A stretch of 41,912 bases of DNA from a virus (Duplodnaviria; Caudoviricetes), in the IMG/VR virus record IMGVR_UViG_3300032212_000043, positions 1 to 41,912 of that record; one strand, written 5' to 3'. Numbering within the stretch: position 1 is the stretch's first letter; every line of letters starts with the position of its first letter. The notes beneath the pieces were generated by a model, which was not told where the DNA came from, did not search any database, and worked only from the letters and a program-made list of their open reading frames with translations. Both the position numbers and the translations under genes were made by a program. Of this stretch, positions 26,704 to 36,234 are shown piece by piece.

Positions 26704-26925
26704 TTACGACTTCTGGTCGATGAGCCAGGCGCCGTCCTTGATGGTGAGCTGCCAGCCTGCGCGGTCGAGGGCTTCTGCAATCTGGTAGCCGGACGTAGTG
26801 AGCCCGGACGGGTCGAATGGGATGGGCTTGCCGGCCCATGTGTTGAGGGCGTCCGCGATGCGTTGGAGGTCGCGGTGGTAGGGGCTGCGTGATGCGATGA
26901 CTTCTGCGGGGGTGGGGATCACCAT
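26704..26925 (-). CDS. Hypothetical protein
   Basis: Reads MVIPTPAEVIAS...; overlaps the upstream stop. Confidence 0.6.
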   Translation of the reverse strand: MVIPTPAEVIASRSPYHRDLQRIADALNTWAGKPIPFDPSGLTTSGYQIAEALDRAGWQLTIKDGAWLIDQKS

Positions 26926-27038
26926 GTCGTTACACCAAAATGGTGGTCGGCAATATCCACAGCGGCTTGCCACGAATGTCCTTCGGACATCAAGCGCTGC
27001 ACCATGTACGCGTGAGCCTCAAGATCTCTGTCTTTCAT
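26919..27038 (-). CDS. 39-aa hypothetical protein
   Basis: ATG at 27038 overlaps the TGA of the MTase catalytic frame. AGGAAG SD. Confidence 0.55.
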   Translation of the reverse strand: MKDRDLEAHAYMVQRLMSEGHSWQAAVDIADHHFGVTTW

Positions 27039-27769
27039 TGGGCTTCCTGTTTGACGATATGAGTACCAATCCATCGACCGATCACGGCTCCGCATTGGGG
27101 AACAACGGCATTCCCGAGGGCTTTGAGTCGGTCGCGGTCGTGGGGCTGTCGTGGTCGAGTTCGGGGAGGCTCCCAGGCGTGCTGTGGTCCCGGAGGGGCG
27201 GGCCATCGGTGCAGGTCCAGCCGGGAGGGAAGCCCATAAGACTCTCGACCCAATCCGGATTGAGCCTGCCCCCGCTGCCGGGTTCGATGGGCTCGGTAGG
27301 CTGACCCCGTCGCTGTCCCGGCTTGCTTGAGCCTTTGTGGTCGGTGGCTGAGGGGGTCGGCAGGGCGCGTTTCGCCTCGACGGCCAGAACGCGCCCAGCC
27401 CCGTTCCCGTTCCCGTTCTTGTGCAGAGCCTTTAGACGAGCTCTGCGCTTGTCGAATGACGCCGGGCTCTCCGCATAGTTGAACGCGCTGGCGACCGGGG
27501 TCGGCCAGCCAGCAGACGCAGAACCACCGCTCCCGCCGATGGGGCGCGCCCACCTCTGATGCTCGCAGACCTCCCCAGCGCGCATCATACCCGAGATCGG
27601 CCATGGTCCCGAGTACGGCTCCCAGCCCCCGACCAGTGATCGCTGGGACGTTCTCCATGACAACGATTCGGGGTCGTAGCTCGCGAACGATCCGGGCCAT
27701 CTCGAAAAACAATCCGGACTTCTCACCTGCCAGTCCGGCTCCGTTGCCGGCGAGTGAAATGTCCTGGCA
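27035..27769 (-). CDS. C5 DNA methyltransferase, catalytic C-terminal part (motifs IV, VI, VII, VIII, X); no good start of its own
   Basis: (P)CQDISLAG, MENV, GAPHRRERWF and RLKALGNAVVPQ. Confidence 0.9.
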   Translation of the reverse strand, partial: CQDISLAGNGAGLAGEKSGLFFEMARIVRELRPRIVVMENVPAITGRGLGAVLGTMADLGYDARWGGLRASEVGAPHRRERWFCVCWLADPGRQRVQLCGEPGVIRQAQSSSKGSAQERERERGWARSGRRGETRPADPLSHRPQRLKQAGTATGSAYRAHRTRQRGQAQSGLGRESYGLPSRLDLHRWPAPPGPQHAWEPPRTRPRQPHDRDRLKALGNAVVPQCGAVIGRWIGTHIVKQEAQ

Positions 27770-28449
27770 GGGCTTACCGGGAACCCGCCACAAATCATGT
27801 CGACTTGCGCGAGTTCCCTTTCACCCCCCTTCGGCACTGCCGTGTTGATGGTGTGCCATGCATGGTGACAGCCTTTGCAGAGCCATCGAACCTTGAGCGG
27901 GTGGTTGTAGTCGTCGTGGTGCGCCTGGATGGGGGCGCGACCATCGGAGTACTGCACGCCCGGACCTCTGCACTCCTCGCAGATGGAAGGGCGCTTGAGC
28001 CTGCCCTGCCTGACCGCGACCTCGACGGCATTGTGCACGCCATCGTCGGCCAGAACACCGCCTCGGTAAAAGTGATTGTCCGACCCGTACCGGCGCTGTG
28101 GGCGCATCTTGGTGCGCCGCTTCAGCAGGCCGTGCATTGACTGCCTGGTCACGCCGTACCGGGGAGCGATGGCTCCGCACGACATGCCGCCCTCGTACAG
28201 GGCCACTGCCTCGACTACCTGCTCCGGTGTGAGTTTCTTGAGCTTCCCAGCCATGGGGCCTCCTACATTTAGAATGTTGTCGTACCGCTGCGCGTCAGGC
28301 CAGTGACGCGCCAGCACCTTTCTGGCGTACTCGTTCTGCTCGACCTGCCAGACGGTCTCTGACGGTACCCCGGCGGACATAAGGCCAGCTTCAAGGCCAT
28401 AGTCCAGCCCTCCTACTCCGGAGAACAGGGAGCCGATTCTAAGGGTCAT
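27082..28449 (-). CDS. C5 methyltransferase N-terminus (motifs I-III) plus inserted HTH-HNH endonuclease, running into the alternative-frame beta subunit (TRD/motif IX)
   Basis: SLFSGVGG; VEQNEYARKVLARHWP; CEEC..AHHDDYNHPLKVRWLCKGCHHAWH; VDMICGGFP; WPTP/LPTP; RLNPDWVESLMGFPPGWT. Confidence 0.9.
   Translation of the reverse strand: MTLRIGSLFSGVGGLDYGLEAGLMSAGVPSETVWQVEQNEYARKVLARHWPDAQRYDNILNVGGPMAGKLKKLTPEQVVEAVALYEGGMSCGAIAPRYGVTRQSMHGLLKRRTKMRPQRRYGSDNHFYRGGVLADDGVHNAVEVAVRQGRLKRPSICEECRGPGVQYSDGRAPIQAHHDDYNHPLKVRWLCKGCHHAWHTINTAVPKGGERELAQVDMICGGFPVSPARTFHSPATEPDWQVRSPDCFSRWPGSFASYDPESLSWRTSQRSLVGGWEPYSGPWPISGMMRAGEVCEHQRWARPIGGSGGSASAGWPTPVASAFNYAESPASFDKRRARLKALHKNGNGNGAGRVLAVEAKRALPTPSATDHKGSSKPGQRRGQPTEPIEPGSGGRLNPDWVESLMGFPPGWTCTDGPPLRDHSTPGSLPELDHDSPTTATDSKPSGMPLFPNAEP
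27817..28264 (-). mobile_element. In-frame HNH homing-endonuclease-like insert with its own SD and ATG
   Basis: AGGAGG at 28264-28259 and ATG at 28254. HTH followed by an HNH Zn-finger. No intein termini. Confidence 0.7.
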
Positions 28450-28616
28450 GGCTGCTCCTCGGCAGCGTCCGTCTCAACGATGGCACGAATCAGCGCCTCG
28501 TTTAGCGAGCAGGCGTGACGTGTGGCGATGCGCTGGAGTGCTGCGCGGTGGTCCGCGTTGAGGTACGCGGTGTACCGGGTACGCTTCTCCTCGGGGGGCA
28601 GGGCAAGGCGACCCAT
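28446..28616 (-). CDS. Ribbon-helix-helix (CopG/Arc-like) regulator, 56 aa
   Basis: MGRLALPPEEKRTRYTAYLNADHRAALQRIATRHACSLNEALIRAI. Its stop overlaps the MTase ATG. Not in the ORF track. Confidence 0.75.
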   Translation of the reverse strand: MGRLALPPEEKRTRYTAYLNADHRAALQRIATRHACSLNEALIRAIVETDAAEEQP

Positions 28617-28894
28617 CAGGATGCCCCGGTAATGTGAACGGTGCTGACTGCGGCTTTGATAAGCTTTTTCGCAGCCGCAGCAGAGGACCCATCAGGGATG
28701 ATGATGTCGCTTCCATCTTCCATCACGGCGACCCACAGCCATGGTGCTTGGCGGTCACGAACCAATCCAGACACACCGTTTGCATGCCATCTGGTAGGAC
28801 GCTCCCGTGAGACCTCTCCAATTGACGCGCCGTTTACCGTAATGCCCCATGTGGTCACAGTTTCATCAGTGCCCAGATTTTCAAACTTGATCAT
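28616..28894 (-). CDS. Hypothetical beta-rich protein (first gene of cassette 1)
   Basis: ATG at 28894 behind a GAGGA SD. Confidence 0.75.
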   Translation of the reverse strand: MIKFENLGTDETVTTWGITVNGASIGEVSRERPTRWHANGVSGLVRDRQAPWLWVAVMEDGSDIIIPDGSSAAAAKKLIKAAVSTVHITGAS

Positions 28895-28982
28895 GGTGTT
28901 GTCCTCGGTGGGGTTGGTTCGTCTCCCCACACCAACAACATAAAGCACCGGTGTTCTACCGTCAATAGAACACCGGTGCTTT
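28891..28982 (-). promoter_or_regulatory. Promoter TTGACG-17-TATGTT with a 17-bp inverted-repeat operator and conserved hairpin leader (copy 1)
   Basis: IR arms at 28942-28958 and 28966-28982 flank the -35 box. The leader is 41/44 identical to 31323-31366. Confidence 0.85.
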
Positions 28983-31140: not shown

Positions 31141-31326
31141 CTACGGCAGGTAAACGACGACCTGCCCCATCGTGATGGTCTGGCCCAGCATCACAGCCAT
31201 GTCGTACGCGCTGCGGTCGGTGCTGTCCCGGCACTCTTCGCGGCATGTCACGGTGTAGCTGCTGCGATCCATCTCGGTGCGGTTGCCGGTAGTCGTGGCG
31301 GTCAAGTTGGTGATCACTGCGGTCAT
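31141..31326 (-). CDS. Hypothetical 61-aa protein (first gene of cassette 2)
   Basis: ATG at 31326 behind the conserved leader. Confidence 0.7.
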   Translation of the reverse strand: MTAVITNLTATTTGNRTEMDRSSYTVTCREECRDSTDRSAYDMAVMLGQTITMGQVVVYLP

Positions 31327-31409
31327 GGTGTTGTCCTCGGTGGGGTTGGTTTCGCTCCCCACACCATCTACTTACTTTGATACAAACAACCCGTCAATAG
31401 ATTGATACA
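31323..31409 (-). promoter_or_regulatory. Promoter TTGACG-17-TAAGTA with TGTATCAA direct-repeat operator and conserved leader (copy 2)
   Basis: Same spacing as copy 1. Repeats at 31377-31384 and 31402-31409. Confidence 0.75.
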
Positions 31410-35991: not shown

Positions 35992-36143
35992 AAGGTGCGC
36001 CCCGGGCGGGTTTGAATCCGCAACCAGTCATCTTTCAGGCCCTACTTGATGATCTGGTCAGGGCTGGGTCCAGGATCGCTTGTCAGGTTCACATGGCCGT
36101 GCTCCCCTGCTCGCTATCCGTCCTCCACCCTCCGGTGCATGAC

Positions 36144-36218
36144 GCCTGCGGGTGAGGGTCGAACTCACGCCTCCCGCTGTTTACACGGTTGTTCTTTCCA
36201 GCTTGAACTACGCACAGA
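36144..36218 (-). tRNA. Degenerate tRNA (anticodon position reads AAA; bulged acceptor stem)
   Basis: U8A9, D-arm GTTC/GAAC with TGG loop, and T-arm GTGAG-TTCGACC-CTCAC. Weak anticodon stem, no CCA. Confidence 0.55.
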
Positions 36219-36234
36219 CCCTCAGACTGTAGCC

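Follow-up and report, generated by a model that had tools for sequence, protein, structure and literature searches.

An apparently mobile HNH nuclease cassette in phage C5 methyltransferase genes, with a coding gap probably crossed by hairpin-driven translational bypassing

Programmed translational bypassing is known from very few genes: these are gene 60 of T4-like phages and the terminase gene of Streptomyces phage Hau3, together with Magnusiomyces mitochondria (bioRxiv 2024.12.09.627546). For gene 60, it has been proposed that stem-loops forming on the exiting mRNA drive the bypass (bioRxiv 2024.12.09.627546). The present work deals with a locus in a tailed-phage contig of 41.9 kb and 63% GC (IMG/VR record IMGVR_UViG_3300032212_000043, positions 1 to 41,912; this whole stretch of DNA is called the window), in which a gene for a C5 DNA methyltransferase (MTase) contains an in-frame HNH nuclease and is broken by an 8-nt coding gap between the codons of its catalytic Pro-Cys dipeptide. 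The interpretation favored here, with a probability of roughly 0.7, is a mobile HNH cassette in a C5 MTase with a gap that would be crossed by hairpin-driven translational bypassing. It is proposed to work like T4 gene 60 with its nuclease MobA (bioRxiv 2022.08.31.505936; bioRxiv 2024.12.09.627546).

Several differences separate the two systems. The gap of gene 60 has 50 nt (20 in one clade), whereas the MTase gaps have 5–15 nt and are therefore too short for an A-site stem-loop. The take-off codon encodes Gly in gene 60 and Pro in the MTases, in which the landing codon is often only partly matched. MobA splits gene 60, while the MTase HNH lies in frame inside the gene and the gap falls in the catalytic dipeptide; in the window, unlike in gene 60, the unshifted frame would also yield a second subunit. 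The Hau3 terminase resembles the rare-codon-first subtype to which the window belongs, with a 10-nt bypass, shown by a junction peptide, at an A-site codon that is slow to decode, namely rare UUA or, when tested in E. coli, a stop (PMC10732093). It is, however, a terminase tied to UUA regulation and found in few genomes, against more than 100 MTase lineages, and the accessible part of that paper mentions no homing nuclease. Synthetic stop-hops, in which 9 nt are decoded as one amino acid, have the same geometry as 65 of the 131 gaps described below (Pro-stop-Pro-like 6-mers), but they are low-level and lack a stimulator; the 2016 review that describes them states that no natural in-frame stop-hop was then known (PMC5009743). 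The layout of the MTase itself matches that of M.EcoHK31I, whose alpha subunit has motifs I–VIII plus X and whose beta subunit, with motif IX, is encoded in another frame within the alpha gene (PMC2836561). In that enzyme alpha is encoded without interruption and beta has a start codon of its own; in the window beta follows the N-terminal half and the HNH in the unshifted frame, and alpha would need a hop. Finally, the hidden HNH of ShiLan is inserted in a mycobacteriophage DNA methylase and spreads without splicing (PMC11855218), as is proposed here, but it is out of frame and leaves the methylase frame open, with no coding gap or bypass in the part of the paper that is accessible; in the window it is the host frame that is broken, with the HNH in frame. 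The locus is therefore not a ShiLan-type element, and with no Rfam match near the gathering score and no intein domain in Pfam it is not an intron or intein either. Literature searches, which left most subscription papers outside their scope, returned no paper on bypassing in DNA methyltransferases.

The locus is encoded on the minus strand. An open reading frame (ORF) of 455 aa (28449–27082) is open throughout and contains motif I (LFSGVGG), motif II (QVEQN) and motif III (YDNI), then a helix-turn-helix (HTH) and HNH region from Met66, GGFP, and the beta frame. Its 5′ half up to the take-off Pro (27778..28449, 224 aa) holds motifs I–III at 28428–28273 and matches PF00145 (residues 4–56) and PF02796. 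The HTH and zinc-finger HNH endonuclease (27853..28254; C157xxC160, H177-H178, W-L-C-x-x-C-H-H-x-W-H) matches phrog_2340 (endonuclease, 9e-19) and phrog_8446 (HNH), and its structural model (pLDDT 82.5) matches HNHc and endonuclease VII models of BFVD with an rmsd of 1.1–2.5 Å over about 70 columns. The catalytic or alpha half (27035..27769, 244 aa) runs from the Cys codon at 27769 to TGA at 27037–27035 and is placed one base back from the unshifted frame; it carries the Cys-Gln-Asp of motif IV (CQD), motif VI (MENV, 27658–27647), motif VIII (PHRRER, 27544–27527) and motif X (LKALGNAVVP, 27127–27098), with matches to PF00145 (4e-23), phrog_363 (3e-41) and M.HhaI 80–181 (4e-13). The beta frame (27082..27777), +1 to alpha and here identical with the unshifted frame, includes a motif IX-like segment, LNPDWVESLMGFPPGW, at 27264–27217 and matches phrog_1008 (1.5e-23). 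Motifs I–X and the catalytic Pro-Cys of a C5 MTase are all present, yet they are distributed over two frames and the gap. At the junction the minus strand reads GGC GGG TTC CCG GTAAGCCC TGC CAG GAC, where CCG (Pro, 27778..27780) is the take-off codon predicted from the family pattern and the 8-nt gap GTAAGCCC (27770..27777) begins with the A-site codon GTA and ends with the predicted landing codon CCC (27772–27770). Shine-Dalgarno (SD) sequences precede both starts: GAGGAG (28455..28460) stands before ATG 28449, which overlaps the stop of the upstream ORF (ATGA), and the internal AGGAGG (28259..28264) before ATG 28254, the start of the HNH (MAGKLKKL). A preliminary description of the locus had already reported the split at GFP|CQ by 8 nt with the HNH upstream and the motif-IX beta frame, the two SD-preceded starts, the ATGA coupling of the catalytic-frame stop to the next ATG (27038), and predicted products of 455, 390 and 468 aa; each of these is present in the sequence, and the lengths came out the same when recomputed.

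The gap is neither an error nor private to this genome. In the contigs of the only public run found to contain this DNA, which is listed as a microbial mat metagenome and is possibly the source of the window and hence not independent of it, the junction is covered by one contig at depth 58 without other letters or indels. No RNA dataset containing the DNA was listed, which speaks neither for nor against the locus. In addition, 131 distinct loci (109 clusters at 80% identity) have gaps of 5–15 nt at the same Pro-Cys site, and an assembly error is ruled out because so many distinct loci are gapped exactly there. The lengths are 5 nt in 1 locus, 6 nt in 65, 7 nt in 30, 8 nt in 10, 9 nt in 13, 10 nt in 8, 11 nt in 2, 12 nt in 1 and 15 nt in 1; as a control, inserts were also looked for at motif VI (EN|V) of these loci, and none was found against 198 intact. 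These loci come from several searches. Searching with the N-terminal half yielded 29 viral loci, and all 8 full-length fusions among them, as well as L012, have 6–8 extra nt between the Pro and Cys codons. Pattern scans of IMG/VR found at least 42 of 78 loci gapped with TTC, a scan that is incomplete in that the contig of L002 was missed, and 5 of 120 with TTT; in GTDB, 6 of 120 loci were gapped, in metagenome-assembled genomes of five phyla. Scans by alignment to the HNH only, blind to the gap, contributed L468–L621. The final set of 131 gapped and 129 intact loci was obtained after dropping duplicates, the window's own record (L542), a spurious junction (L254), candidates of 1–2 nt (GSPC genes) and L087, which is gapped and was lost to the motif filter. 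An estimated 5,700 or so intact stretches match the pattern. No cultured representative was found in INPHARED or among plasmids, and no further CCG-N5-CCN 8-mer in IMG/VR.

The sequences of the gaps obey a few common rules. The first triplet is a stop codon in 123 of the 131 loci (TAA 48, TGA 48, TAG 27) and never TGG, while the other eight gaps start with CAA (two) or CGA followed by TGA, or with AGA, AGT, TTA, ATA or GTA. The GTA of the window is the rarest Val codon in its long ORFs (86 of 832 Val). The take-off codon is CCG in 89 loci, CCA in 23 and CCT in 19 but CCC in none, although intact genes use CCC in 51 of 129 cases. The last gap triplet has a middle pyrimidine (NYN) without exception and is CCN in 73 loci, and in terms of codon pairing all 131 gaps end in a triplet with which tRNA-Pro could re-pair. 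Landing triplets other than CCN keep the third base of the take-off codon in 48 of 58 cases, compared with 26 of 73 CCN landers (Fisher 6e-8), a difference that holds on distinct strings (35/43 vs. 19/51) and within CCG take-offs (34/43 vs. 11/46). C is found at only 6 of 146 inner gap bases. The stop-first, pyrimidine-landing and third-base rules are expected if peptidyl-tRNA-Pro leaves at a slow A site and re-pairs downstream; Pro before a stop is reported to slow termination (PMC7246954). Other signals were considered. With regard to a mini-SD, anti-SD pairing is much the same with and without a gap (medians −5.5 and −5.1, respectively), and with regard to a nascent-peptide signal, the residues upstream of the gap are motif IV itself and loci without HNH have a different upstream peptide. 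In one locus, L607, the 4 additional nt lie at the Cys codon itself (TGT TAG C CAA) rather than before it; this locus possesses the 5′ hairpin described below, which suggests a hop one codon later. In seven others (L002, L076, L048, L561, L590, L591 and L604), gaps of 7 or 10 nt starting with TAATG put a beta-frame ATG over the stop; a coupling of beta by TAATG is not convincing, since it occurs in 8 of 38 gaps of 7 or 10 nt and in 9 of 80 gaps of 6, 9, 12 or 15 nt.

On its 5′ side the gap is accompanied by a hairpin, not noted in the preliminary description, in which an arm of the form GGAA-S-Y-Y, some 35–45 nt upstream, pairs with GG-S-UUCC, that is, with the G-F-P codons. Core pairing is predicted for 129 of 131 gapped loci against 29 of 129 intact ones, the median minimum free energy is −26.3 vs. 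−14.9 kcal/mol, and the median z against synonymous shuffles is −2.8 vs. +0.5. In the window the predicted hairpin (27779..27818), a likely bypass stimulator given the folding and its conservation in the family, pairs the arm GGGAACUC with GCGGGUUCCC, the G-F-P codons, and terminates at the take-off codon; the segment 27830–27760 folds with −36.8 kcal/mol (z −4.5). RNAalifold, applied to 33 loci of equal spacing, predicts a stem of 7 bp in which one pair is fully compensatory (24 C-G, 9 G-C), and the covariation score of this alignment was reached in none of 500 shuffles, with slid controls lower, although relatedness inflates such counts. In 106 loci matched at the other six pairs, with the partner chosen without position −7, this position pairs as C-G in 49 and G-C in 40, with 4 G-G, no C-C and 13 others. 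The hairpin is retained in 33 of the 34 gapped loci without in-frame HNH. It also accounts for a codon bias that is limited to the three codons before the gap (in 102 loci selected by HNH, GGG/GGC 96% and TTC 95%, against GGA 39% and TTC 63% elsewhere in the same genes) and that also holds in low-GC loci, because these G-F-P codons are the 3′ arm of the stem-loop; a prfB-like internal SD is not supported as the cause of this bias. No stimulator was found 3′ of the landing site, and 3′ structure shows no excess (median −16.7 gapped vs. −17.5 intact). Neither was an A-site stem-loop found in the gap, the local fold from −18 to +6 being no stronger than in intact loci, and extension of the 5′ stem into the gap is modest (−2.3 vs. 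−2.0 kcal permuted), while in the window, L566 and L249 the lower stem can take in the gap. A short local hairpin with covariation between −10 and −1 was not supported either (58 vs. 52.6 shuffled, p 0.12), the real stem being of longer range. An upstream hairpin that refolds has been reported to favor forward movement and to damp −1 movement in 70S ribosomes (PMC6321510); by analogy, we infer that the hairpin pushes the ribosome forward at this locus.

Three features of bypass sites are thus found in the sequence: take-off and landing codons readable by tRNA-Pro, a slow A-site codon, and a predicted 5′ stem-loop. In the proposed mechanism, the ribosome would reach the Pro codon CCG with a slow codon in the A site (a stop in 123 of 131 relatives, the rare GTA in the window) and pause there, helped by poor termination after Pro. 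As the mRNA leaves the ribosome, the hairpin would refold through its G-F-P arm and drive the ribosome forward, peptidyl-tRNA-Pro would re-pair at the last gap triplet (CCC), and decoding would resume at Cys. The product would be an alpha chain of 468 aa with the exact GFPCQ restored and still bearing the HNH. Ribosomes that do not hop would release the HNH in the stop-first relatives or read the motif-IX beta in the window subtype (455 or 390 aa), and the hop rate would set the output of alpha against that of beta or HNH. The HNH would in turn cut gap-less alleles near the FPCQ codons, repair would copy HNH, hairpin and gap together, and the gap would give immunity. A wider generalization, to which slightly less than even odds are given, is that a portable signal of about 50 nt (a hairpin of catalytic-motif codons, a Pro take-off, a slow codon and a Pro-like landing) suffices for efficient programmed bypassing across many bacterial phyla, in some cases as the first in-frame stop-hops known from nature, and that in the subtype of the window the rare sense codon makes the hop a switch dividing one mRNA between alpha, beta and the homing nuclease.

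The second frame is by itself an ordinary property of this gene family, since motif-IX beta frames are found in 58 of 84 intact genes as well as in 72 of 93 gapped ones (the N-terminal profile of beta, which the alpha frame by itself can satisfy, was disregarded). The beta-frame ATGs of intact genes cluster 22–23 codons ahead of the Cys. In the window, beta could be read from 28449 or 28254, and a weak GTG located 14 codons past the Cys (SD −5.6) is another option. The unshifted frame coincides with the beta frame only when the gap length is 2 mod 3, and it is among such gaps that sense-first, stop-free ones concentrate (4/13 vs. 1/118 elsewhere, p 3e-4). The gaps of the window, L566 and L249 begin with GTA, ATA or TTA and end with CCC, and L003 is similar but carries a further frameshift. 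Of the nine stop-first gaps in this length class, that of L588 alone is followed directly by a long motif-IX frame. Five other long matches, read as protein only, are all GFP-to-beta fusions like that of the window. Accordingly, the window is best viewed as a recurring but rare sense-first subtype of about eight cases, in which a rare codon appears to replace the stop and ribosomes that do not hop would make beta. Because the unshifted frame of the window runs into beta, a hop there would split alpha from beta output.

The 8-nt length would also let a −1 slip restore the frame, and this counts against a hop in the window. On this reading, which is improbable, other family members would hop, but in the present sense-first copy tRNA-Pro would slip by −1 from CCG onto an overlapping CCC while the hungry GTA codon waits, and the product, GGF-PGK-PCQD, would contain three additional residues. 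A slip of this kind can restore the frame only if the gap length is 2 mod 3, precisely the class in which sense-first, stop-free gaps are enriched, and the window, L566 and L249 all have the form TTC CCG...CCC TGC, which preserves Pro-Cys. The same enrichment, however, is expected from the need for an open beta frame, the spacing of motif IV (in the usual motif numbering) is strict in C5 MTases, and variable-gap scans turned up no genuine MTase whose motif IV contains additional sense residues. Moreover, no excess structure lies 3′ of the site, and the hairpin is upstream, a position reported to oppose −1 shifts (PMC6321510).

It is equally improbable that alpha is not made at useful levels, the MTase being a dead or dying carrier of the HNH in the window only or in the whole family. 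Orphan phage MTases are often dispensable, according to the ShiLan report (PMC11855218). Even an insert that does harm can spread through homing, L003 carries an additional frameshift and the window has lost the stop. Nevertheless, downstream motifs are in frame as often in gapped as in intact loci (VI and VIII in 81/87 vs. 74/81, X in 70/83 vs. 71/80). Over 80 codons after the Cys, each of the 39 gapped pairs for which dN/dS could be computed (2 saturated) has a value below 1, with a median of 0.255 against 0.268 in 45 intact pairs, and in three pairs (pN/pS of 0.027/0.20 for L502/L508, 0.034/0.31 for L590/L604 and 0.039/0.27 for L592/L598) the HNH has diverged as much as the catalytic half, which indicates that selection acted with the gap in place. 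On this sequence comparison the catalytic half is under purifying selection in gapped genes, and therefore recoding is needed to keep the MTase, as the preliminary description had argued. The hairpin and the landing rules also persist in loci without HNH, the alpha frame of the window is whole and ATGA-coupled, and there are at least seven other sense-first, beta-fused cases.

Removal of the gap at the RNA level, by hairpin-guided cleavage and ligation, or its skipping by RNA polymerase, is very unlikely. A conserved RNA structure does adjoin the gap, and in the window, L566 and L249 it can include it, but no Rfam family comes near its gathering score, gaps go down to 5 nt, homopolymer runs are missing, and both the bias for in-frame stops without TGG and the third-base compensation are signatures of the ribosome and tRNA. 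Equally unlikely is the production of two chains by termination and re-initiation, or readthrough of the stop: split C5 MTases can work (PMC2836561), and in the gaps of L601, L603, L567 and L605 an ATG or GTG falls into the catalytic frame, but most gaps, including that of the window, have no start codon in that frame before the Cys, and readthrough, which would add residues, is excluded as a general route by the 52 of 131 gaps of non-triplet length (5, 7, 8, 10 and 11 nt).

The association of the gap with the HNH, predicted in the preliminary description, is supported. The 130 distinct HNH loci include 92 gapped in-frame fusions and no fusion that is intact, and one locus (L607) has its extra nucleotides at the Cys codon, so that all 92 readable in-frame fusions with a standard junction are gapped; free-standing HNH genes precede gapped genes in 4 cases and intact genes in 6, 24 loci have no junction in reach and 3 were unparsed. 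In the same line, among the 120 near-length relatives of the HNH protein listed (185 were found), 97 end exactly at GFP, 3 shortly after and 20 have no GFP, and none reads GFPC. The HNH motif is complete in each of 97 in-frame relatives examined for it, and an SD of −5 kcal or better precedes the internal HNH Met in 55 of the 60 relatives where it was located. The element also appears to be mobile, as had been suggested. In a tree of the catalytic core (113 + 113 rows), gapped genes are scattered among intact ones, with 52 changes of label vs. 76 shuffled and at least 7 forced by starred branches, which disfavors a single origin of the gap. HNH and catalytic identity are only weakly linked (rho 0.30, with discordant pairs), and L502 and L504, which have diverged catalytic halves, share 659 of 660 nt up to the gap and about 85% from 30 nt past it; this tract of N-terminal half, HNH, hairpin and gap looks like a recent conversion event. 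From these three observations homing is likely, and HNH and gap would together form a homing cassette. As judged from sequence, the HNH is an intact nuclease gene with its own start and appears to have spread horizontally together with the insert, in the manner of MobA. As a separate observation, the six free-standing HNH genes upstream of intact MTases are those of L503, L511, L514, L558, L600 and L606, and five of these MTases have a motif IV other than GFP (GYP, GTP, SAP or GSP), possibly reflecting immunity by sequence change. Databases label the truncated MTase-HNH products (P0004, P0015, P0022, P0088 and others) as “YlxM DNA-binding protein” or “transposase-like,” which hides the system.

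Several points weigh against this interpretation. In the family, 34 of the 131 gapped loci have no in-frame HNH, a situation shared with some gene 60 loci that lack MobA (bioRxiv 2022.08.31.505936), and L600 has a free-standing HNH before an intact GFP-C gene. Foldseek found no match of the HNH model in PDB at E below 0.001. The catalytic-core tree rests on 89 columns, the dN/dS pairs were picked at 55% identity or more, the intact controls were fetched with a TTC-CQD pattern, and gapped counts are not independent events, given shared ancestry. In the window, take-off and landing codons differ (CCG/CCC), and they are identical in only 26 of the 131 gapped loci. The window also lacks the stop present in 123 of 131 relatives and its gap resembles the common 7-mer TAAG-CCN plus one base; hence it could be a derivative that works less efficiently or has decayed.

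The surroundings of the locus are those of a tailed phage, with genes for a tape measure protein, portal, terminase, a Holliday junction resolvase and a repressor-like protein. DnaB and O-like initiator genes lie shortly downstream of the MTase locus. The ATG overlapping the alpha stop opens an ORF of 39 aa (26919..27038, minus strand), whose own stop overlaps the next ATG and which has no family match in Pfam and PHROG profile searches. Elsewhere, a 44-nt direct repeat (28891–28934 and about 31323–31366) stands before two small leftward ORFs that both contain TNPTEDNTM, and it is possibly a shared regulatory or SD element. ARAGORN reports a tRNA-Phe with an unusual AAA anticodon (36143–36219, minus strand), which may be spurious. 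Over the whole window CTAG has 2 sites (ratio 0.05), while CTCGAG and AGGCCT are missing against 16.9 and 6.3 expected, respectively, possibly due to avoidance of host restriction.

If true, the system would be a miniature and widespread counterpart of T4 gene 60. It offers more than 100 natural variants of one minimal site, in which covariation indicates the driving element and partial landings follow rules of their own, so that the forward push by exiting mRNA would become directly testable without the other signals of gene 60. About 1% of phage MTases of this motif type (at least 42 gapped loci against the estimated 5,700 or so intact stretches) would be concerned, annotated at present as truncated “YlxM” or “transposase-like” proteins. 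It would also represent another route, beside introns and inteins, for a homing nuclease to occupy the active-site codons of an enzyme.

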